Positions 2,456 to 32,828 of a stretch of 32,828 nucleotides of DNA are shown here, piece by piece. The stretch's first letter is position 1, and every line of letters begins with the position of its first letter. The stretch lies in UHGV virus genome UHGV-0144137. One strand, given 5' to 3'. Made by a program: the position numbers and the translations under genes. The stretch comes from a virus. A model generated the notes under the pieces. It saw only the letters and a program-made list of their open reading frames with translations, had not been told where the DNA came from and ran no database searches.

Positions 2456-2640
2456 ACGCCACAATTCAAACGATACCAGAGCTTCTTATCCAGACACGAG
2501 GCAATCAGACCGAAGTGGCGAGGATGCTTTCCTGCGCAAGAGGAACAGTGCTCAAGTACAACCGAGACAGCAAAGGCGAGCGTCACGTAATAGTTAACGG
2601 CGTCCTGATGGTCACGCCAGGCAAAAAGGGAAGACGATGA
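2452..2640 (+). CDS. ninH: NinH-like small DNA-binding protein
   Basis: 62 aa; TIPELLIQTRGNQTEVARMLSCARGTVLKY resembles the lambda NinH helix-turn-helix segment; immediately upstream of Q. Confidence 0.7.
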   Translation: MNATIQTIPELLIQTRGNQTEVARMLSCARGTVLKYNRDSKGERHVIVNGVLMVTPGKKGRR

Positions 2641-3260
2641 GACTCGAAAGCGTAGCTAAATTTCACTCGCCAAAAAGCCCGATGATGAGCGACTCACCAC
2701 GGGCTACGGCTTCTGACTCTCTTTCCGGTACTGATGTGATGGCTGCTATGGGGATGGCGCAATCACAAGCCGGATTCGGAATGGCTGCATTCTGTGGTAA
2801 GCACGAACTCAGCCAGAACGACAAACAAAAGGCTATCAACTATCTGATGCAATTTGCACACAAGGTATCGGGGAAATACCGTGGTGTGGCAAAGCTTGAA
2901 GGAAATACTAAGGCAAAGGTACTGCAAGTGCTCGCAACATTCGCTTATGCGGATTATTGCCGTAGTGCCGCGACGCCGGGCGCAAGATGCAGAGATTGCC
3001 ACGGTACAGGCCGTGCGGTTGATATAGCCAAAACAGAGCAGTGGGGGAGAGTTGTTGAGAAAGAGTGCGGAAGATGCAAAGGTGTCGGCTATTCAAGAAT
3101 GCCAGCAAGCGCCGCATATCGCGCTGTAACGATGCTAATCCCAAACCTTACTCAACCCACCTGGTCACGCACTGTTAAGCCGCTGTATGACGCTCTGGTG
3201 GTGCAATGCCACAAAGAAGAGTCAATCGCAGACAACATATTGAATGCGGTCACACGTTAG
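2637..3260 (+). CDS. Q: Late-gene antiterminator Q (lambda type)
   Basis: 207 aa; sequence MRLESVAKFHSPKSPMMSDSPRATASD...CRDCHGTGR...CGRCKGVGY matches lambda Q as I recall it, including the zinc-finger cysteines; followed by a lambda-like pR'/tR' leader. Confidence 0.93.
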   Translation: MRLESVAKFHSPKSPMMSDSPRATASDSLSGTDVMAAMGMAQSQAGFGMAAFCGKHELSQNDKQKAINYLMQFAHKVSGKYRGVAKLEGNTKAKVLQVLATFAYADYCRSAATPGARCRDCHGTGRAVDIAKTEQWGRVVEKECGRCKGVGYSRMPASAAYRAVTMLIPNLTQPTWSRTVKPLYDALVVQCHKEESIADNILNAVTR

Positions 3261-3302
3261 CAGCATGATTGCCACGGATGGCAACATATTAACGGCATGA
3301 TA

Positions 3303-3331
3303 TTGACTTATTGAATAAAGTTGGGTAAATT
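3303..3331 (+). promoter_or_regulatory. Late promoter pR' (with overlapping qut region)
   Basis: TTGACT (3303-3308), 17 bp spacer, TAAATT (3326-3331), directly downstream of Q; the surrounding sequence is near-identical to the lambda pR' region as recalled. Confidence 0.7.
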
Positions 3332-3337
3332 TGACTC

Positions 3338-3530
3338 AACGATGGGTTAATTCGCTCGTTGTGGTAGTGAGATGAAAAGAGGCGGCGCTTACTACCGATT
3401 CCGCCTAGTTGGTCACTTCGACGTATCGTCTGGAACTCCAACCATCGCAGGCTGAGAGGTCTGCAAAATGCAATCCCGAAACAGTTCGCAGGTAATAGTT
3501 AGAGCCTGCACAACGGTTTCGGGATTTTTT
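3338..3530 (+). ncRNA. 6S-type short late leader transcript (pR' to tR')
   Basis: Inferred from the pR' and tR' positions; in lambda this short transcript terminates at tR' in the absence of Q. Exact 5' end not determinable from sequence alone. Confidence 0.45.
3472..3530 (+). terminator. tR' intrinsic terminator
   Basis: Long GC-rich inverted repeat AATCCCGAAAC...GTTTCGGGATT followed by TTTTTTAT. Confidence 0.8.
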
Positions 3531-3534
3531 ATTT

Positions 3535-3609
3535 GGGTCAGTCGTATAAAGGTCATTACGGAAGGCTGTTAACCTTCTTATCGTGGTTCGAGTCCACGCT
3601 GTCCCGCCA
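3535..3609 (+). tRNA. tRNA-like gene, anticodon GTT (Asn) by manual folding
   Basis: Manual cloverleaf: acceptor GGGTCAG/CTGTCCC (one T-T mismatch at 4-69), D-loop with GG, anticodon stem GAAGG/CCTTC with loop CTGTTAA, T-arm CGTGG-TTCGAGT-CCACG, discriminator G, encoded CCA. The mismatch leaves pseudogene status open. Confidence 0.55.
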
Positions 3610-3614
3610 AATAT

Positions 3615-3690
3615 GCTGGTTTAGCTCCAATGGTAGAGCAGTCGCCTTGTAAGCGAATGGGTAGCGGTTCAAGTCCGTTAACCAGCACCA
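3615..3690 (+). tRNA. tRNA gene, anticodon TGT (Thr) by manual folding
   Basis: 76 nt cloverleaf: fully paired acceptor GCTGGTT/AACCAGC, D-arm TAGCTC...GGTAGAGC, anticodon loop CTTGTAA, T-arm AGCGG-TTCAAGT-CCGTT, discriminator A, encoded CCA. Confidence 0.7.
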
Positions 3691-3934
3691 TAACTGAGCC
3701 GTAGCCACTGGCTATCCTGAATTCATCATTGATAGTTACGCTGCGGCCTTCTACACATGACCTTCGTGAAAGCGGGTGGCAGGAGGTCGCGCTAACAACC
3801 TCCTGCCGTTTTGCCCGTGCATATCGGTCACGAACAAATCTGTTTACTAAACACAGTAGCCTGGATTTGTTCTATCAGTAATCGACCTTATTCCTAATTA
3901 AATAGAGCAAATCCCCTCAATGAAGGGGTAGAGC

Positions 3935-4138
3935 ATGTACCGTATGGACAAAATCAGAGAATGGTTCAGTTACAGCTTCGGAGGACTGACTGCGATGGGT
4001 GGCATTCTCTCCCTGAATGACTGGGCTGTCATCATTGGTATTCTTTGTACTGTCGGCACATTTGGCATCAACTGGTACTACAAGCGCAAAGAGCGCGAGG
4101 ACAGATTGAATGGCAATGTCACCGGCACTACGAAATAG
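3935..4138 (+). CDS. Holin, phage-21-like pinholin candidate with dual start (M1/M4)
   Basis: 67 aa; N-terminus MYRMDK resembles the S21 dual-start motif; a glycine-rich weakly hydrophobic TMD1 ([13 protein letters not shown]) followed by a stronger TMD2 and a charged C-terminus; directly upstream of a SAR endolysin. Confidence 0.7.
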
Positions 4139-4613
4139 CGTAATAGCGGCGATAAGTGGTGGGGCTATTGCTATAGCATCTGTGTTAATCACTGGGCCAA
4201 GTGGTAACGATGGTCTGGAAGGTGTCAGCTACATACCATACAAAGATATTGTTGGTGTATGGACTGTATGTCACGGACATACCGGAAAAGACATCATGCT
4301 CGGTAAAACGTATACCGAAGCAGAATGCAAAGCCCTCCTGAATAAAGACCTTGCCACGGTCGCCAGACAAATTAACCCGTACATCAAAGTCGATATACCG
4401 GAAACAACGCGCGGCGCTCTTTATTCGTTCGTCTATAACGTGGGCGCAGGCAATTTCAGAACATCGACGCTTCTTCGCAAAATCAACCAGGGCGATATCA
4501 ATGGCGCATGTGACCAGCTACGTCGCTGGACATACGCTGGCGGTAAGCAATGGAAAGGGCTGATGACTCGCCGTGAGATTGAGCGTGAAGTCTGTTTGTG
4601 GGGGCAGCAATGA
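4110..4613 (+). CDS. SAR endolysin (T4-lysozyme-like muramidase, GH24)
   Basis: 167 aa; N-terminal Gly/Ala-rich signal-anchor-release segment ([16 protein letters not shown]) then E...D...T catalytic pattern ([24 protein letters not shown]); start overlaps the holin 3' end. Confidence 0.85.
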
Positions 4614-22591: not shown

Positions 22592-22779
22592 AAAACCGCA
22601 GATGTTGTTTTTGTGGGTGTAGTAAAGAAACGACTGGCAGGGGCTTTGTTGTGTCAAAAAATACCGAAGAAGCAATTTGTAACTCATGCGTTACAGATAT
22701 TGTTATTTTCATGCATACCGAGAAGGGGTTAGATGAAAAGCTAGAGAGTATTCCAGTTGAAGGCGCTGATAAAAGTTGA
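22588..22779 (+). CDS. small Cys-rich (zinc-ribbon-like) protein between arc-like and ant
   Basis: 63 aa; CCFCGC...CNSC cysteine pattern; ATGA overlap with the arc-like stop. Confidence 0.45.
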   Translation: MKNRRCCFCGCSKETTGRGFVVSKNTEEAICNSCVTDIVIFMHTEKGLDEKLESIPVEGADKS

Positions 22780-22842
22780 AGCCCCAACTGCGGGAACAGT
22801 CAGGGCTTCGGTATCGTAAAACCACGCATAGGAATTAACGAC

Positions 22843-25945: not shown

Positions 25946-26472
25946 AACCAGCATTTAAATACAATATATATCATAAAACTTACATAATAGTTATAACTAT
26001 AATTCTTGCTTAAGAATTTATAAAAACTGAGACACACAAAGCTTTGCACTTGATTGCAAGGCGTTGTGCTCTTCGATAGTGGTTAAGGTGGATCACTCCA
26101 CCTTTTCATCAAGCCAGTCCGCCCACCACTGCATCATTTCTCTGCGCTTATCGAGATACTGAGCATGGTTGTAAATTCAGCTAACCCAATGCGTTGACAA
26201 AAAATTAGCGCAAGAGGACAAAAAATCACCTTGCGCTAATGCTCTGTTGTAGGTCACTAATGCCATCTAAGTAGTTGATTCATAGTGACTGCATATGTTG
26301 TGTTTTGTCGCATTTTGCAGTCTGTTATTTAACCGTAAATACTTATAAACATATGATTTTTAAATAATTTATATGATTTTGTCATCCTTTAGGTGAAAAA
26401 GAACGCTGGAGTACCAGCGGTGATGTTCACGAAATTAAAAATCTTCCTGTAATCCTCTATAGCAAACAGGCG

Positions 26473-26901
26473 TTGATGACGTCGGCAAAGGACGGCCTGT
26501 TGAAGAAGAATGTATCAGGGGTGAAGAGTTCCAAGCATGGCTGCTTTGTTTATGGCGATACCTCGTTTTCTTTCAGTGAGGTAATGGAAGCTATCTTCAT
26601 CAGTGGGCTGTTCTTCTATGCGCCAATAGACGCCGCCAGTAGTCTTGATGAACTGAAAGTGAGTTTGGCTGGGCTGGAAGAAGAACTGGCCGAAGTACCA
26701 AAAGTGGATTCGAATGGCAATGAAACAGATAAAGAACCTACTATAGTCGTAGCCGAAGGTGCTTTTGATTCGGTCGCTGCTCACATGGAAACAGAAGCTG
26801 AGGAGTGGCAATCTATTAAGAACCTGTGCCAACGAGAAGGTGAGCTGCCCATACGTATTGGTGGTATTAAAATGGCTGAGCCACCAGAGTTTCATTTTTA
26901 G
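26473..26901 (+). CDS. hypothetical acidic protein (first gene of two-gene accessory operon)
   Basis: 142 aa ORF 52 nt upstream of the 393 aa ORF, same strand; acidic C-terminal half; no recognisable motif; true start uncertain. Confidence 0.45.
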   Translation: MMTSAKDGLLKKNVSGVKSSKHGCFVYGDTSFSFSEVMEAIFISGLFFYAPIDAASSLDELKVSLAGLEEELAEVPKVDSNGNETDKEPTIVVAEGAFDSVAAHMETEAEEWQSIKNLCQREGELPIRIGGIKMAEPPEFHF

Positions 26902-26961
26902 TTTAAAAGCAACAATCTACCACTTAATGATTACGAAGCTATAAGTTGAAGGATGATTCAC

Positions 26962-28134
26962 ATGCCACACAAGAAAGTAGCATTACAGCTCATTGAAGAA
27001 ACACTTAAAGAACTCGAGTCACCAAAAGGTTCTTTGTTATCGGCTATACAAAAACTACAGCGGACTTCGGATATCATCAATGATGATGATAAAAAGATAT
27101 GGTGTGCTATTCAATTAGGTGATACTAAATATACAAAGCCAATAACTGAATTGCTTAAGTTTGTTATTGAGGCTGAAAATACAAAAAATAAATCTTTCCA
27201 AGAAAATTTAGACAAACGAATACAAGAACTTGCCAAATTAGGAGTTAAGGCTAATATACATTATTCAGATGAAGAACTCACATTAAAAAATATTGAAAGT
27301 GGTGGTGGATATAATAACATTGGGTTTATTGAAGAGAAATATGCCGATCTTGTAAGAAAAAAACAAGGCAATGACGGAACGTATTATAAGAATAGTTTAA
27401 ATCAACATATCAATTATGTTAGAAAAAAAGCACATGAATTAGCATCGCAAATATATAATCAACTAAAATTTTCAGGTACTGTCAGCAACTGTTTTGATGT
27501 ATTGAAAAATGCTGTTGATGATAAATTATTAGATCTAAATCCAGTGATCGCAGAACAACTAATGTTGGCATTTAAAGCTATTTCTTCAGATAAAGAAGAA
27601 GAATGGTCTCAAGCTTTAACTACATGTCGTAGGCTTCTAGAAGGGTTGGCTGATGAACTTTATCCGGCATCGAAGGAAAAATTTAATGGTCGGGCCGTTG
27701 GGCAAGGTCAATACGTAAACCGCCTTTGGGCATTTATGGATGGGGCTATTCAGTCTGATAGTAATAAAGACCTTGCCAAAGCACATATAGATTTTCTCGG
27801 ATCATGGTTAGATAAAGTTAATAAGTTAACAAATAAAGGTGTTCATGCCGAGTTAGATCGGATTGAAGCTGTAAAGTCAGTATTTCACACGTATTTAGTA
27901 GTGGCGGATTTGCTTGAGTATATGTCAAATACCAAAACCTCTGTATCTAAGCCTGATATCAATAAAGCTACTTTAGATGAACTGGAAGCATTGTTAAATA
28001 TAAATAGAACAATCGCTAAAGAAATTGTTAAAGCACGAGTTCGTGAAGGCAAGCTTGATCTGGATATTTTAAAAAACATAAAAGGTATAGGTGCTAAGAC
28101 GCTTAGTAATATACAAGAAGTGTTTGTTATGTAA
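26962..28134 (+). CDS. hypothetical alpha-helical protein with C-terminal ComEA-type helix-hairpin-helix DNA-binding domain
   Basis: Track ORF 26953..28134, start set to ATG 26962 (GAAGGA Shine-Dalgarno 9 nt upstream); C-terminus INKATLDELEALLNINRTIAKEIVKARVREGKLDLDILKNIKGIGAKTLSNI fits the ComEA HhH pattern; AT-rich codon usage. Confidence 0.6.
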   Translation: MPHKKVALQLIEETLKELESPKGSLLSAIQKLQRTSDIINDDDKKIWCAIQLGDTKYTKPITELLKFVIEAENTKNKSFQENLDKRIQELAKLGVKANIHYSDEELTLKNIESGGGYNNIGFIEEKYADLVRKKQGNDGTYYKNSLNQHINYVRKKAHELASQIYNQLKFSGTVSNCFDVLKNAVDDKLLDLNPVIAEQLMLAFKAISSDKEEEWSQALTTCRRLLEGLADELYPASKEKFNGRAVGQGQYVNRLWAFMDGAIQSDSNKDLAKAHIDFLGSWLDKVNKLTNKGVHAELDRIEAVKSVFHTYLVVADLLEYMSNTKTSVSKPDINKATLDELEALLNINRTIAKEIVKARVREGKLDLDILKNIKGIGAKTLSNIQEVFVM

Positions 28135-28170
28135 TTTATTTAGTATTTAATTGATATAATATCATGAAAT

Positions 28171-28206
28171 AAAATCGGGAGTTCATACGTAGCAACTCCC
28201 GATTTT
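28171..28206. terminator. Bidirectional terminator-like hairpin between convergent genes
   Basis: Perfect 10 bp stem ATCGGGAGTT / AACTCCCGAT flanked by AAAA and TTTT. Confidence 0.55.
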
Positions 28207-28225
28207 ACGATGATATGTTGTATTA

Positions 28226-28592
28226 TCAATCCATCAAACCACGTGAGGTCTTACTTGCAGTCTGACGAAAATCATAACGTTCCACAACATCACCCTTAAA
28301 CCAGATATCCAGTGATTTAATGTGTGCTGTGCTGCTATTGGTCAATAGAGCAAGGCCCGGTATGTAGTTAGATAGTTGGCTTTCTCCCGTCATACTTGAG
28401 TAGTTCCACATCTCCTGTCCATCATTCGTAGCGCTCTCCAAAGGCAGCAAGAATTTCTTGTTGGGTTGTTTTTCCCTTGACGATTTTAACTTTAACCGTC
28501 TGATGATTTTCATCAGTTAGGGATTTATTACCATGAACGGTACAGCCACCAAGTGGTAATATTATAAAAATAGCAAGTAATAATTTTTTCAT
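28226..28592 (-). pseudogene. Lipoprotein gene apparently split by a frameshift
   Basis: Two overlapping minus-strand ORFs (28422..28634 and 28226..28513) in different frames; the upstream one carries signal peptide and lipobox MKKLLLAIFIILPLGGC (ATG at 28592), the downstream one lacks its own signal; overlap region contains a homopolymer run. Confidence 0.4.
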
Positions 28593-28623
28593 TTTTGTTC
28601 CAGAAATAGATGAAAGGTGAGAC

Positions 28624-29112
28624 TCAGAAAACATACTTTTTAAATACCAGCATCCATCGCTTGCAAAGTTCGTGATTTGAGGTGCTTAAATTTTTCAGGG
28701 GAACATTAACTTTCCACATGGGATTTTTAATATCATCGGTTAAAATATTTAGGCCAGACCGTTTATTCGCTGAAAGTTGTTCTCTACAGTTAGCAATAGC
28801 CGCATTATTCATACCTCGTAATGTTCCATTGCCATAAAACTTACCCCCCTCTGAAAGCGTATAATTTATTTCTCGAATTTGATCAAAAGTATATGTGCTG
28901 TCTTTATCTTTATTGAAAATACGGACAGTATGTTTTTGAGTATCAATAACAATACCTGTCTGTTGGCATTCATACGAAAGAATGTCGCCGTCCAGAACTT
29001 CCGTAAAGCTGTTGTAGTGCTTTTTCTTTTGTATATCTACTGCTGTCATGATGATGATGAAGAGCACCACTAAAAATACGATACCTACTGCTTCCAATCT
29101 TACTTCCTCCAT
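28624..29112 (-). CDS. hypothetical membrane-anchored protein
   Basis: 162 aa; N-terminal TM helix (AVGIVFLVVLFIIIMTAV) then soluble domain; AT-rich; divergent from the lipoprotein operon across the GATC-rich region. Confidence 0.55.
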   Translation of the reverse strand: MEEVRLEAVGIVFLVVLFIIIMTAVDIQKKKHYNSFTEVLDGDILSYECQQTGIVIDTQKHTVRIFNKDKDSTYTFDQIREINYTLSEGGKFYGNGTLRGMNNAAIANCREQLSANKRSGLNILTDDIKNPMWKVNVPLKNLSTSNHELCKRWMLVFKKYVF

Positions 29113-29224
29113 GTAAATGAGTTAAAGAGACTGAACCTGCTCACAGAGCTTTGCTACGTTTTATACGTCCTACAGCACCAAGCTCATGGCGTCGGTCTCG
29201 GCGTTGCAAGGCTATCAGAACTTG

Positions 29225-29375
29225 AAATCATGATCGATATAAAAGATCGATAATTAATTATTGATAGGCTTTAACGATTAAAACAATGATATTGATCGAT
29301 TATTAATTGTTTTTATCGATCGAATATTTATTTATGATAGCTATTGGCTATCATAAGGTTGTTTTTGATCGTTTT
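29225..29375. promoter_or_regulatory. Divergent intergenic control region with clustered GATCGAT repeats and a 10 bp inverted repeat
   Basis: GATC at 29232, 29245, 29294, 29318 and 29367; the 7-mer GATCGAT occurs three times direct and once inverted; imperfect 22 bp direct repeat GATCGATwATTAATTrTT (29245-29266 and 29294-29315); inverted repeat TTATGATAGC-N5-GCTATCATAA at 29332-29356. Confidence 0.5.
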
Positions 29376-29529
29376 AAACGATATGACGAGACGCTAAAAG
29401 AATTGAATCCTATCAATTGGTTAAGCGGTGGTTTTGCCATGTGATATCAGCCGGATCCCGCAACAACTCTAGCCCTGACCAGATTTGGTCAAAAATTTAG
29501 GCACTTTGATTATCAGGATGGATAAGCAG

Positions 29530-30060
29530 ATGAAGAAGATTTTACTCGTTGCTGGCGCAGCTCTGGCACTGGCGGGATGTGGTGAGAAAGGTGATTTTGA
29601 GAAGGCGATCAATGCCAAGATAGGGCAGGACAAATATTGCTTCTCGCTGGATAACAATAACACCAGCTTCCCCATCCGTCTTGCCAAGCCACGACTTGAT
29701 TCGACTGGTACAGGGACGAATTCAGTGATCCTCGATGGATTTGTAGAGCAGGGAATGATGGTCTTTGAGCAGGGCTATGATTCGAACGTATTAGGGATAA
29801 CAGAGGAAGGCAAAAAAGCCAAAGTCTGGAGCACAACAGATGGTGCCTGTGTTGGTCGTCGTGCTGTTGACGGGATTAAGGAATGGACTGAGCCGGGAAA
29901 CGGTAATCAGAAAGTAGTTCGCGTGACTTATACGTGGAAGCTGGTTGACGTTCCGGGCTGGATTGACAAAAAAGCATTCGCCAGCGTTAAAGGAATGAAT
30001 GAACCTGCTGATGGTGCCATGAATCTCTTTAAGACCAGCAATGGCTGGAAAGCCAATTAA
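29530..30060 (+). CDS. Predicted lipoprotein
   Basis: Track ORF 29485..30060 trimmed to ATG 29530 (MKKILLVAGAALALAGCGEKG...): signal peptide with lipobox LAGC. Confidence 0.7.
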   Translation: MKKILLVAGAALALAGCGEKGDFEKAINAKIGQDKYCFSLDNNNTSFPIRLAKPRLDSTGTGTNSVILDGFVEQGMMVFEQGYDSNVLGITEEGKKAKVWSTTDGACVGRRAVDGIKEWTEPGNGNQKVVRVTYTWKLVDVPGWIDKKAFASVKGMNEPADGAMNLFKTSNGWKAN

Positions 30061-30070
30061 GGAAACCAAT

Positions 30071-30346
30071 ATGGAAAACAATACCATCAAATGCCCGTTC
30101 TGTTTCAAAGAGAGCCAGCGTGGGGTTCACGTTTGCACAGGTTGCTTAGCGACTGTGTTATATGGCACTTATCCCGGCTGGTATGCTGCTGTTGTTTTGT
30201 TGTTGACTTTTGGTTTATCGACGTTGATCGGTATGTCAACAGGTATGGCAGGAGCTACTATCAGTCTACCAATAATTGCGGTTGTTGGGTTTATAGCTGG
30301 TAAGGCGATATTCTCTGATAATGTTGTGTTTAGGCGAAAGATATAA
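30071..30346 (+). CDS. small membrane protein with N-terminal zinc-ribbon (CPFC...CTGC)
   Basis: Track ORF 30041..30346 trimmed to ATG 30071 (AAGGAAACC Shine-Dalgarno); CxxC-x15-CxxC then two hydrophobic helices; 10 nt downstream of the lipoprotein gene. Confidence 0.6.
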   Translation: MENNTIKCPFCFKESQRGVHVCTGCLATVLYGTYPGWYAAVVLLLTFGLSTLIGMSTGMAGATISLPIIAVVGFIAGKAIFSDNVVFRRKI

Positions 30347-30405
30347 AAAACGAAAAGAATTATATGATGGGCGACCTTTCATAGTTCGCCCATATATAAA
30401 TATAA

Positions 30406-31242
30406 CTAAAGACCATTTCTCGCTGATTTTATATCCAATAAGTTTATTTTATCTATCTTATCTTTGTGGATAACGATAGTAAGCTTTGCCGGAAATTTAA
30501 ACCTCATTTCACTTATTCTAAAAGTCCACAACATTATTTTAAGTAAATCCTCATCGCTAATATTTTTATGTTCCTTTATTCTAGTGATTCCAGATCCAAA
30601 GATAGGAACAGAGACACTTTTTTGAGCATATATACGATTAACTTTGTCCCAAAAATTTATTAAAAATGCTAGATAATCCGGCATTGTAAGAAAAGCTCTA
30701 TTTTTGTCGTCAAATTTTGAAAACGCAGTTAATAGATAATCATTATTAACGAAGATAGTTCCTAGCGAATATTTTTGTGTTTTACCCACTTTTCTTTTAT
30801 GGTTGACCTCAAGCAGTTCATCTTCTTCAAACTGATGATTTGAAATACGATGGTCCAAATCAGATACGGATCCCGCTAAATAGTTATCAATATATAATCC
30901 ATTAAGTGAATTATGAGAAATGATAACATCATCAACTTGCGTGTCAAAATATTCATTAAAAGCAATGACCTTGAATCCATCTTGTCTGAATAAATCGCCT
31001 GCTTTTACAGTAACAATGCTGCCCTCAACATCTAAATTAATTTCCGAAAGATTATTTGATTTAAACCATATGCCGAAATACAGTAAGAATAAAATAATTA
31101 AAAATATAATACCAAGTGTTAGTTTGTTTTCTGTTGGAATGTCTACAAAAATCAAAAAAAGTGAAAATATGGTACTAATAGTTGATGTGTAGTCTGAAAA
31201 TTTTTTAAGTATACGCTTATCGAAAAAATTAACTTTCGCCAT
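30406..31242 (-). CDS. Two-TM membrane protein with C-terminal Macro-like domain (ThsA type II-like effector candidate)
   Basis: 278 aa; two N-terminal hydrophobic helices (TISTIFSLFLIFV, LGIIFLIILFLLYFGIWF); downstream motifs DDVIISHNSLNG and SVPIFGSGITR resemble Macro-domain ADP-ribose-binding motifs (by eye); about 30% GC. Confidence 0.55.
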   Translation of the reverse strand: MAKVNFFDKRILKKFSDYTSTISTIFSLFLIFVDIPTENKLTLGIIFLIILFLLYFGIWFKSNNLSEINLDVEGSIVTVKAGDLFRQDGFKVIAFNEYFDTQVDDVIISHNSLNGLYIDNYLAGSVSDLDHRISNHQFEEDELLEVNHKRKVGKTQKYSLGTIFVNNDYLLTAFSKFDDKNRAFLTMPDYLAFLINFWDKVNRIYAQKSVSVPIFGSGITRIKEHKNISDEDLLKIMLWTFRISEMRFKFPAKLTIVIHKDKIDKINLLDIKSARNGL

Positions 31243-31378
31243 TTTTGTACCAACCTTGTTAATTATATGTAATTCAAGTGTGTTGATAGTAGTTTCTTAT
31301 AAATGATGTTTACACTATCTGATATATAAGGTATTTTCAACATGTTGATACTAATGTTGACTGCTTCATGGGGACTAT

Positions 31379-31888
31379 ATGAGTTATCGTAATAAGACAT
31401 ATGTGGCTTTTGCAAGTGAAGATATAAAGTTTTATCGTCTTATGGAGGCATGGAAAGCAAATGAAAAAATAGACTTTAACTTTTTTGATGCTCATGATCT
31501 CTTTATTTCAAGGGATACAAGTAAACCTGAAACCATAAAGCGAAACCTCCGCGAAAGGATGAAAAATGCTAAACAAGTAGTACTGTTGGGAAGCGGTAAT
31601 ACTAAGAGAAAAGGTAGCGATGGAGTATCGTTTCTTGCCCATGAAATAGATCTTATCGTAGAATTTAATCTTCCTGTTGTAATAGCTAATTTAGACGGAG
31701 ATAGAACAGTCGATAAGAACTTCATTCCTAAACCACTTTTAGATTCAGAACATTATACAGTATCTGTCTCTTTCCAACCTAAAATTATTAAATATGCATT
31801 AGATAATTACTGTGTTAACTATTACTCAAGTTCAAATAGTGGTAGTTATCTATACCCTACATCTGTTTATACTAAGCTAGGTCTGTAA
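31379..31888 (+). CDS. TIR-like (DUF1863 / ThsB-like) protein candidate
   Basis: 169 aa; N-terminus KTYVAFASEDIKFYRLMEAW and later VVLLGSGNT...AHEIDL fit the pattern of TIR-like ThsB proteins as I recall it; divergent from the TM-Macro gene. Confidence 0.5.
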   Translation: MSYRNKTYVAFASEDIKFYRLMEAWKANEKIDFNFFDAHDLFISRDTSKPETIKRNLRERMKNAKQVVLLGSGNTKRKGSDGVSFLAHEIDLIVEFNLPVVIANLDGDRTVDKNFIPKPLLDSEHYTVSVSFQPKIIKYALDNYCVNYYSSSNSGSYLYPTSVYTKLGL

Positions 31889-31914
31889 TATTTCAACGTA
31901 TACTAAACAATATG

Positions 31915-31941
31915 TGGAATGAGCACGGAACACTCATTCCA
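31915..31941. terminator. Hairpin between convergent genes
   Basis: 9 bp stem TGGAATGAG / CTCATTCCA with 9 nt loop, in an AT-rich intergenic region. Confidence 0.4.
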
Positions 31942-32019
31942 TAACAAACATACTATTTAGATGTGCTAATACAATTAATTTTATGCATCGAAGATATTAA
32001 GCACTTATGATTTATTGCT

Positions 32020-32828
32020 TTATCTTCTCCTGTATGCTATTTCAGCCAACTCTCTTGCTATTTCCTTAACGCTATATAAAGAAGTTTGCAGTGCCATTTT
32101 ATCCGCCAAATAATGGCTGTATTTAGATACCTCTTGAGCATTGATATTATGCCAGATTGGCAATATAATCTTATTATCATCATACACTGCACGATTAATT
32201 AAACTATCTAATTCGTATTGTGTCCATTTCTTGTTTAGAAAGTTATGAGAAAGTATGACTATGCCATAATTTGCTTTTCTTAGGCCTAAATCAATATTTC
32301 TCCTTAAGCTATCGCCGACTTCAAGTGTCTGTTCATCATACCAAATAATTACACCAAGTCTATTTAACTCGTCTACCAGTGGTCTGACAAAAGTATCTTT
32401 ATCCTCTTTTGCATGGGATATGAAAAAATCATAGTGCGTATTATTGTTATCTTGCATGACGTCATTCTGTATTTCATATGGTTGATGAAAAATTGCTTGT
32501 AATTTTGCCCAGTCTATTTCTGCTAAAGATTTATTATTGCGATAAAATAGTTTTTGGGAAGGGAAATCAATATTCGAAATGTAAATAATAAATATATTAT
32601 TTATTTTCTTTGCCTCAACCTCCTTCCACTCCCATCTATAATCGTGGATATAAGAAATTGATGCTTGAAAATAATCATTGGAAGTTAAATTACCTGCGCG
32701 AAATGTCGCATTACTAATATTAAACGCGAGATATGAGTTACCTTCTCCGTTGAAAATAATATTATATCCCTCTTTCAATAGATATGAACGAATCTCTTTG
32801 GTTTTTAGGTGCTGTTTCCATGCGAGGA
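32020..32828 (-). CDS. TIR-domain protein (N-terminus beyond window edge)
   Basis: Canonical TIR motifs YDFFISHAKEDKDTFVRPLVDEL...WYDE...IVILSHNFLNKKWTQYEL in the C-terminal half; the reading frame stays open upstream of the TTG at 32778 to the end of the window, so the gene is probably truncated by the window. Confidence 0.75.
   Translation of the reverse strand, partial: LAWKQHLKTKEIRSYLLKEGYNIIFNGEGNSYLAFNISNATFRAGNLTSNDYFQASISYIHDYRWEWKEVEAKKINNIFIIYISNIDFPSQKLFYRNNKSLAEIDWAKLQAIFHQPYEIQNDVMQDNNNTHYDFFISHAKEDKDTFVRPLVDELNRLGVIIWYDEQTLEVGDSLRRNIDLGLRKANYGIVILSHNFLNKKWTQYELDSLINRAVYDDNKIILPIWHNINAQEVSKYSHYLADKMALQTSLYSVKEIARELAEIAYRRR

Follow-up and report, generated by a model that had tools for sequence, protein, structure and literature searches.

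Architecture of the late leader

Two tRNA genes occupy the late leader in the DNA examined here, a stretch of 32,828 nucleotides that constitutes the virus genome UHGV-0144137 (hereafter called the window). At the upstream side of the locus, an open reading frame of 207 amino acids (2637..3260; plus strand, as are all the other features in this leader) corresponds to the lambda-type late antiterminator Q, and the matching genes in lambda, Kapi1, and HK446 are indeed annotated as antitermination protein Q. The 3' end of Q and the DNA downstream of it are nearly identical to those of lambda; namely, 280 of the 283 bases from the end of Q to the terminator tR' are the same. This region contains the late promoter pR' (3303..3331), composed of a -35 element TTGACT, a spacer of 17 nucleotides, and a -10 element TAAATT, which differs from lambda pR' at a single spacer base (A in lambda versus G in the window); the transcript presumably starts around position 3338, given the homology with the start site at lambda 44587. 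The terminator tR' of the 6S leader then follows at 3475..3530, as read from the sequence: the stem is formed by CCCGAAAC (3475-3482) pairing with GTTTCGGG (3516-3523), the run of six T residues is at 3525-3530, and the two mismatches to the otherwise nearly identical lambda terminator are both in the hairpin loop.

Five nucleotides past this T-run begins a gene for tRNA-Asn with the anticodon GUU (3535..3609; 75 nucleotides), which is separated by a five-nucleotide spacer, AATAT (3610..3614, read from the sequence), from a gene for tRNA-Thr with the anticodon UGU (3615..3690; 76 nucleotides). Downstream of the pair is a conserved leader of the late mRNA (3692..3934), in which 231 of the 244 bases between the tRNA genes and the ATG of the holin gene are the same as those in lambda and which is also conserved in Kapi1 and SPN9CC. 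RNA folding places a strong hairpin within this leader (GGCAGGAGG...CCTCCTGCC; 3778-3807), followed by GTTTTG up to position 3813. A consensus scan for terminators misses both tR' and the hairpin at 3778-3813 owing to its rules on the loop size and the T-run, and these two elements were taken from reading of the sequence and from the fold.

The lysis cassette starts with a holin gene (3935..4138; 67 amino acids), whose counterpart in SPN9CC is annotated as a holin family protein, and continues with an endolysin gene (4110..4613; 167 amino acids with a hydrophobic N-terminus), of which the counterparts are the endolysin of SPN9CC and the SAR endolysin of Mulock. The homology of the leader to lambda stops a few bases short of the holin ATG, and the cassette (3935-4613) is not lambda S/R and is close to that of SPN9CC. 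The initial annotation had described a lambda-like late leader with tRNA genes between tR' and the lysis genes and with no toxin or other cargo gene following them. The match of both flanks to lambda bears out the former, and the list of open reading frames agrees with the latter, as it holds no credible cargo gene between the tRNA genes and the holin gene; the sole open reading frame in this interval (3729-3881; 50 amino acids with a TTG start) lies in the part of the leader that is conserved in lambda.

Taken as a whole, the window represents a P22/HK620-like prophage in an E. coli chromosome, as indicated by sequence matches and by the sar RNA. On the minus strand at 22774-22841, there is a full-length match to sar, the antisense RNA from the immI region of P22 (Rfam RF00262; 84.6 bits with a gathering score of 43), by which the window can be recognized as a P22-like (Lederbergvirus) prophage with an ant/immI module. 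The part at 26392-32828, furthermore, is 99.9% identical to E. coli chromosomes, in which the matching genes are annotated as a TIR-domain NAD(+) hydrolase TcpC, a macro-domain protein, and a ComEA-family protein. The window thus runs into, or includes, an island typical of extraintestinal E. coli.

Identity and structure of the two tRNA genes

When the whole window of 32.8 kb was searched with ARAGORN, exactly two tRNA genes were called, both on the plus strand, and the Rfam family RF00005 was matched by tRNA-Asn with 55.3 bits (E = 1.7e-9) and by tRNA-Thr with 61.5 bits (E = 3.6e-11), where the gathering score is 29; such matches are well outside what chance would give. Both genes can hence be classified as bacterial elongator tRNAs from a covariance score above the gathering threshold and from an independent finder. 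The pair had been proposed from folding by hand; the two programs return it at identical coordinates, and the anticodons derived by hand, GTT and TGT, are those called by ARAGORN. The minimum free energy fold is a cloverleaf for tRNA-Asn and also for tRNA-Thr, and the 3' CCA is encoded in both genes.

The rules by which the synthetases identify tRNA-Asn and tRNA-Thr are well established, and the required elements are all present in the window: the anticodon GUU and the discriminator G73 in tRNA-Asn, and G1-C72, C2-G71, G35, and U36 in tRNA-Thr, of which the discriminator is A73. Two positions in tRNA-Asn depart from standard pairing, namely U4•U69 in the acceptor stem and U13•U22 in the D-stem; the former is flagged in the NC line of cmscan, and the acceptor-stem mismatch that had been noticed by eye in the first tRNA is therefore real. 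In tRNA-Thr, a G27•A43 mismatch leaves an anticodon stem of four base pairs.

The anticodons, the 7-nucleotide anticodon loops, and the identity elements are common to the window tRNAs and the tRNAs of the host E. coli, asnT and thrU, whereas the overall identity to the host genes is just 48 of 78 aligned positions for tRNA-Asn and 55 of 78 for tRNA-Thr. With such low identity, the pair is not a recent capture from E. coli. The two tRNA-Asn also differ at the 1-72 position, which is U1-A72 in the host and G1-C72 in the phage.

Replacement of a lambda segment at a variable slot

Homology to lambda upstream of the tRNA genes stops at position 3532, and alignment of the two genomes sets the bounds of the replaced segment: 159 bp of the window (3533-3691) stand in place of 163 bp of lambda (44782-44944). 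When aligned with each other, these two segments scored no better than shuffled sequences (z = 1.4; 49 of 500 shuffles were equally good) and are hence unrelated. The tRNA genes had been described as inserted; while they do sit in a lambda-like leader, a simple insertion is not what is found, since the 159 bp replace an unrelated 163 bp of lambda. Judged from these alignments, the site is a variable slot that the tRNA segment fills as an alternative. In Sf6, phage 21, and SPN9CC, which carry the 21-type Q, the leader and terminator are different, but the same TTTTTTATTT junction is followed by the same tRNA genes, which start five nucleotides after the T-run of the terminator in the context of lambda-type Q as well as that of 21-type Q. 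The region from tR' to the conserved holin leader behaves as a variable slot.

We also considered the 163-bp filler of lambda as a decayed pair of tRNA genes and rejected this idea; besides the z value of 1.4, ARAGORN called nothing in the filler, and no Rfam family was matched at E <= 1. The full filler (584-746 in the extracted lambda segment) is essentially confined to lambda-derived records, and its first half recurs in IME10 and in some phages of Klebsiella and E. coli.

A known cassette of the phage 21 type

The Asn-Thr pair is already known, belongs to the phage 21 type, and is ordinary. Both tRNA genes of the window are exact substrings of the records of phage 21 (AJ237660) and Sf6 (AF547987), and the module of 166 bp is 100% identical in HK446, Kapi1, mEp506, HF4s, 720R6, and CurroJimenez and 99.4% identical in phage 21, Sf6, SfI, and BTP1, the sole difference from phage 21 and Sf6 being the spacer (AATAT in the window versus AACAT). 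The module was also found in 369 of 5426 complete E. coli genomes (about 7%), where PGAP labels the genes as tRNA-Asn and tRNA-Thr. Indeed, the pair has long been described in phages 21, Sf6, SfI, ST64T, and PS3 (PMC3636060; PMC8022706), and the same pair is marked in Salmonella prophages in the paper on epsilon34 (PMC2629481). With the cassette of phage 21, Sf6, SfI, Kapi1, and BTP1, the window shares the identity of the genes and their location, which is downstream of the late terminator and ahead of the holin leader. The type of Q divides these phages; the lambda-type Q/pR'/tR' is present in the window, HK446, Kapi1, and mEp506, and the 21-type Q is in phage 21, Sf6, and SPN9CC. For annotation, the two genes can be labeled as phage 21-type tRNA-Asn(GUU) and tRNA-Thr(UGU), and the window adds one more copy, with little that is new, of a cassette that dozens of sequenced phages carry.

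Expanded arrays are known in lambdoid phages of the Klebsiella type, such as Asn-Phe-Thr-Arg in Mulock and Asn-Phe-Thr in Flyfo Tbat2_3. Their Asn and Thr genes are about 86-93% identical to those of the window and are in the same position before the holin gene; unlike in the window, however, extra genes for tRNA-Phe(GAA) and tRNA-Arg(UCU) are inserted.

The locus had also been compared with the tRNA cluster of Stx phages (ileX/ileZ type, upstream of stx), and the slot is indeed shared: in each case, the tRNA genes of a lambdoid phage stand behind the late terminator and ahead of the lysis genes. The two also have in common the rationale usually given, namely the supply of tRNAs for rare codons. 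The tRNAs of the Stx-phage cluster are those for Ile and Arg, whereas the window has the anticodons GTT and TGT with no cargo gene behind them. Among the blastn matches to the module, furthermore, no Stx phage was found by organism name, while the same collection contains more than 150 Stx phages. The comparison therefore stands for the position but not for a relationship in sequence. For the rare-codon rationale, Schmidt et al. 1997 is cited in the paper on SfI (PMC3636060). We also considered whether helper-embedded satellites might use the tRNA genes as attachment sites and set this aside, as the study on such satellites (bioRxiv 2022.07.18.500453) makes no mention of phage-borne tRNA targets.

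Allelic variation and the question of decay

By using a 16-mer from the D-arm of tRNA-Asn, about 120 copies of the cassette were gathered as a sample from IMG/VR. The array was Asn-Thr in 96 copies, Asn-Gly(tcc) in seven, Asn-Phe-Thr-Arg(tct) in five, Asn only in four, Asn-Phe-Thr in three, and Asn-Thr-Arg in two; four other arrays were found once each, and no tRNA was called in eight copies. The alleles present in the window are the commonest in this sample (84 copies for Asn and 64 for Thr). Across 18 distinct alleles of tRNA-Asn, 89.9% of the cells in the alignment of stems were paired, and five pairs had changes on both sides; the covariation score was reached by none of 500 shuffles, a control that is generous because the allele sequences are closely related, and controls with slid pairing positions were at most 53% paired. 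Across 20 distinct alleles of tRNA-Thr, 94.3% of the cells were paired, with double changes in three pairs; here, too, the shuffles fell short of the covariation score, and pairing collapsed in the slid controls. The cloverleaf of each tRNA thus carries compensatory changes as expected under selection.

The initial annotation had suggested that the first tRNA may be degenerating, based on its acceptor-stem mismatch, and this is not supported by the alleles. In 17 of the 18 Asn alleles, U4•U69 stays unpaired, and compensatory double changes are found at the neighboring pairs 5-68, 6-67, and 7-66 and at two pairs in the anticodon stem of tRNA-Asn. Since the mismatch is kept while its neighbors covary, U4•U69 is, on the alleles compared, a conserved feature and not a sign of decay. 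The G27•A43 mismatch of tRNA-Thr is likewise retained in all of the 20 Thr alleles.

A broader version of the same suggestion, in which both tRNAs would be decaying relics or pseudogenes within a conserved leader and the mismatch in tRNA-Asn the first sign of loss, could draw on the two non-standard pairs of tRNA-Asn (U4•U69 and U13•U22), on the damage seen in some lineages (C72A in the SPN9CC-type alleles, a few IMG/VR copies with no CCA, and a second tRNA in phage L and ST64T that has a shortened anticodon loop and is not called by ARAGORN), and on the absence of the cassette from lambda and P22. Nonetheless, a conserved mismatch beside compensatory substitutions is a pattern unexpected for a neutral relic, the alleles in the window are the commonest ones, with the identity elements, anticodon loops, and CCA ends all intact, and a tRNA-Thr identical to that in the window is active in vivo (PMC12445682). 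We hence consider it extremely unlikely that the pair is a relic.

Some copies of the cassette have a modified second gene. In phage L cII-101 (986-1057 of the extracted segment), ST64T, PS3, and ST160, the second tRNA resembles tRNA-Thr (about 89% identity) but has a rebuilt anticodon arm with the shortened loop; while ARAGORN makes no call, the Rfam score is 42.1 bits, and the depositors' label is tRNA-Leu(TAA), the function being doubtful. In about eight of the 120 copies (e.g., L126, L019, and L045, at about 290-525 of the extracted segments), tRNA-Asn is followed by a chimeric tRNA-Thr, of which the first 25 or so nucleotides are of the phage type and the remainder matches host thrU at 90-96% identity and carries its Old-sensitive CUG/CAG stem. 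The next gene in these copies is tRNA-Gly(UCC), 89-99% identical to host glyT. From such a mosaic, the chimeric Thr and the Gly gene look like products of recombination with the host thrU-tyrU-glyT-thrT operon.

Expression of the tRNA genes

A crude scan for the sigma-70 consensus on both strands of 3200-4000 gave pR' as the sole site, with no promoter for the tRNA genes themselves. As no promoter of their own was found, the tRNAs are most likely excised from the Q-antiterminated late transcript. Transcription would start at pR' and proceed into the tRNA genes once Q permits read-through of tR', probably with some leak-through in lysogens; RNase P and the 3'-trimming enzymes of the host would then release the tRNAs from the late transcript, and the addition of CCA would be unnecessary given the encoded ends.

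Alternatively, the cassette might serve mainly in lysogenic conversion or be expressed independently, so that the tRNAs are made in the prophage state and benefit the lysogen, for example, by protection against tRNA-cleaving toxins or by helping to express AT-rich, horizontally acquired genes, rather than supporting late phage translation. The source of the tRNAs would then be either read-through of tR' that is ended at the hairpin at 3778-3813 or a promoter that escaped recognition. pR' is constitutive in lambda, and the hairpin with its GUUUUG between the tRNA genes and the holin gene could permit output of the tRNAs without expression of the lysis genes. [quoted passage not shown] In the RNA-seq of the BTP1 lysogen, furthermore, the five genes given as highly expressed (TPM>100) are counted apart from the two tRNA genes (PMC7067206); this wording implies, but does not say outright, that the tRNA genes have high read counts in the lysogen cultures. 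The BTP1 prophage, however, has a high rate of spontaneous induction, and the signal attributed to lysogens may stem from induced cells (PMC7067206). A second promoter-like site was not found in the scan of 3200-4000, the tRNA genes are downstream of an efficient terminator, and it is the phage's own genes whose codon bias they match. Taken together, a role chiefly in the lysogen seems unlikely to us.

Antisense transcription has also been noted around the cassette. In the RNA-seq of the Kapi1 lysogen, of which the module is identical to that of the window, a clear antisense signal is present opposite the tRNA genes, and BTP1 has a similar signal between the tRNA genes and the holin gene (PMC12922286). 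On the minus strand of the window, a terminator-like hairpin is located at 3913-3928, just upstream of the holin start. The consensus scan of 3200-4000 gave no promoter on the minus strand, and the antisense signal of the Kapi1 type may be either genuine or an artefact.

The location at the extreme 5' end of the late operon, directly after tR' in all the contexts examined, and the highly conserved and structured leader just downstream would also fit tRNAs that act chiefly as signals for RNA processing; cuts by RNase P and at the 3' ends would detach the pR' leader from the late mRNA of 20 kb and determine the 5' end and stability of the mRNA, with decoding being secondary. Such punctuation by tRNA-like elements is known in other systems. 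In lambda, however, the same flanks enclose the unrelated 163-bp filler with no RNA family, which indicates that the leader works without tRNAs, and a mere cleavage signal needs none of the conserved anticodons, identity elements, and CCA ends. The UGU anticodon is, moreover, required for the rescue by tRNAThr6, a related phage tRNA-Thr (PMC12445682). We therefore regard processing as a very improbable main function, and favor excision of functional tRNAs from the late transcript.

Codon usage and probable codon supply

Codon usage of the window genes was compared with that of 42 coding sequences of E. coli K-12 by Fisher test, and both ACA and AAT turned out to be over-used in the window. ACA occurs at 16-17 per 1000 codons in the window genes against 5.4 per 1000 in K-12 (about threefold) and accounts for 30-33% of the Thr codons against 10% (p = 7e-13 to 1e-20). 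AAT occurs at 25 per 1000 codons in the window and 14 in K-12 (p = 3e-4), and the Asn codons overall make up 5.2% versus 3.8%. In E. coli MG1655, tRNA-ThrU is the single tRNA with the UGU anticodon and reads ACA (PMC12445682); the tRNA-Thr(UGU) of the phage would decode ACA and thereby top up this host tRNA, and tRNA-Asn(GUU) would add decoding capacity for AAU and AAC.

The codons GGA and AGA are also over-used in the window genes, and exactly Gly(UCC) and Arg(UCU) are the tRNAs added in the expanded arrays of the relatives. On the other hand, GCA, GGA, CTT, and TCA are over-used at least equally, with no tRNA for them in the window phage. Since GCA, CTT, and TCA are over-used without a matching tRNA, codon supply alone explains the pair only partly. 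The authors of the SfI study reported the same excess of ACA with no bias in Asn codons and called the significance of tRNA-Asn unclear (PMC3636060). The cassette is, furthermore, dispensable, as lambda and P22 are without it.

tRNA-Thr and the P2 Old nuclease

A second function has been described for phage tRNA-Thr(UGU) genes, which rescue cells from P2-OLD (Govande et al., Nucleic Acids Res 2025; PMC12445682). [quoted passage not shown] The protection was partial, and the tRNA was expressed from a plasmid and not from the late operon of a prophage (PMC12445682). The tRNA-Thr in the window is identical to that of phage 21 and is hence tRNAThr21 itself. It has the UGU anticodon, the anticodon stem shortened by G•A at 27•43, and UCG and CGA at positions 28-30 and 40-42, where host thrU has CUG and CAG; as in the resistant tRNA-Thr, C28-G42 is replaced by U28-A42, and the paired CNG motif is lost. 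The study by Govande et al. thus covers the same Thr gene, but neither tRNA-Asn nor native expression from the late operon.

Evasion of an anticodon-loop nuclease through loop mutations, following the model in PMC10264068, was rejected for both tRNAs, as their 7-nucleotide anticodon loops are the same as those of the host. The determinants of evasion would thus lie in the stem and not in the loop. As a poor substrate of P2 Old, with a stem of four base pairs and no paired CNG, tRNA-Thr would keep ACA decoded after Old has destroyed the host tRNA-ThrU. Codon supply and evasion of the defense could, in this way, reinforce each other.

A possible anti-nuclease role of tRNA-Asn

It is tempting to extend this idea to tRNA-Asn, which might then serve not for codon supply but as a second nuclease-proof replacement tRNA, with the whole cassette as a kit against tRNases and U4•U69 as a functional determinant instead of a defect. 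Host asnT has the CNG motif (CGG/CCG) together with A37, the combination recognized by P2-OLD, whereas the tRNA-Asn in the window has no CNG motif (AAG/CUU with A28-U42). Another nuclease, the acceptor-stem tRNase CdiA-CT(EC869), targets host tRNA-Asn and needs G73 and a weak 1-72 pair, a variant with G1-C72 being poorly cut (PMC9071432); the window tRNA-Asn has the strong G1-C72 versus the weak U1-A72 in the host. As an anti-OLD tRNA, however, tRNA-Asn gave a mixed picture and was not accepted as a clear case, given that the Klebsiella-type alleles retain the motif (CAG/CUG with C28-G42), and the text of PMC12445682 does not state how strongly host tRNA-Asn is cleaved by OLD. On the features of these alleles, we thus propose this anti-nuclease role of tRNA-Asn as a tentative and rather doubtful possibility.

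The pair 28-42 is one of the covarying pairs of tRNA-Asn; it is A-U in the alleles of the E. coli/Salmonella/Shigella type and C-G in those of the Klebsiella type (L005 from Mulock, L016, L042, L069, L083, L088, and L129, compared with 3561-3577 of the window). This is the exact position that makes or removes the CNG motif of P2-OLD.

In conclusion, the window very likely carries two functional phage-borne tRNA genes that are expressed from the Q-antiterminated pR' transcript, supply decoding of ACA and Asn codons, and, in the case of tRNA-Thr, evade P2 Old. With a tRNA-Thr identical to tRNAThr21, the prophage in the window is expected to escape, at least in part, the exclusion mediated by P2 Old, unlike lambda with its unrelated filler at the same slot.
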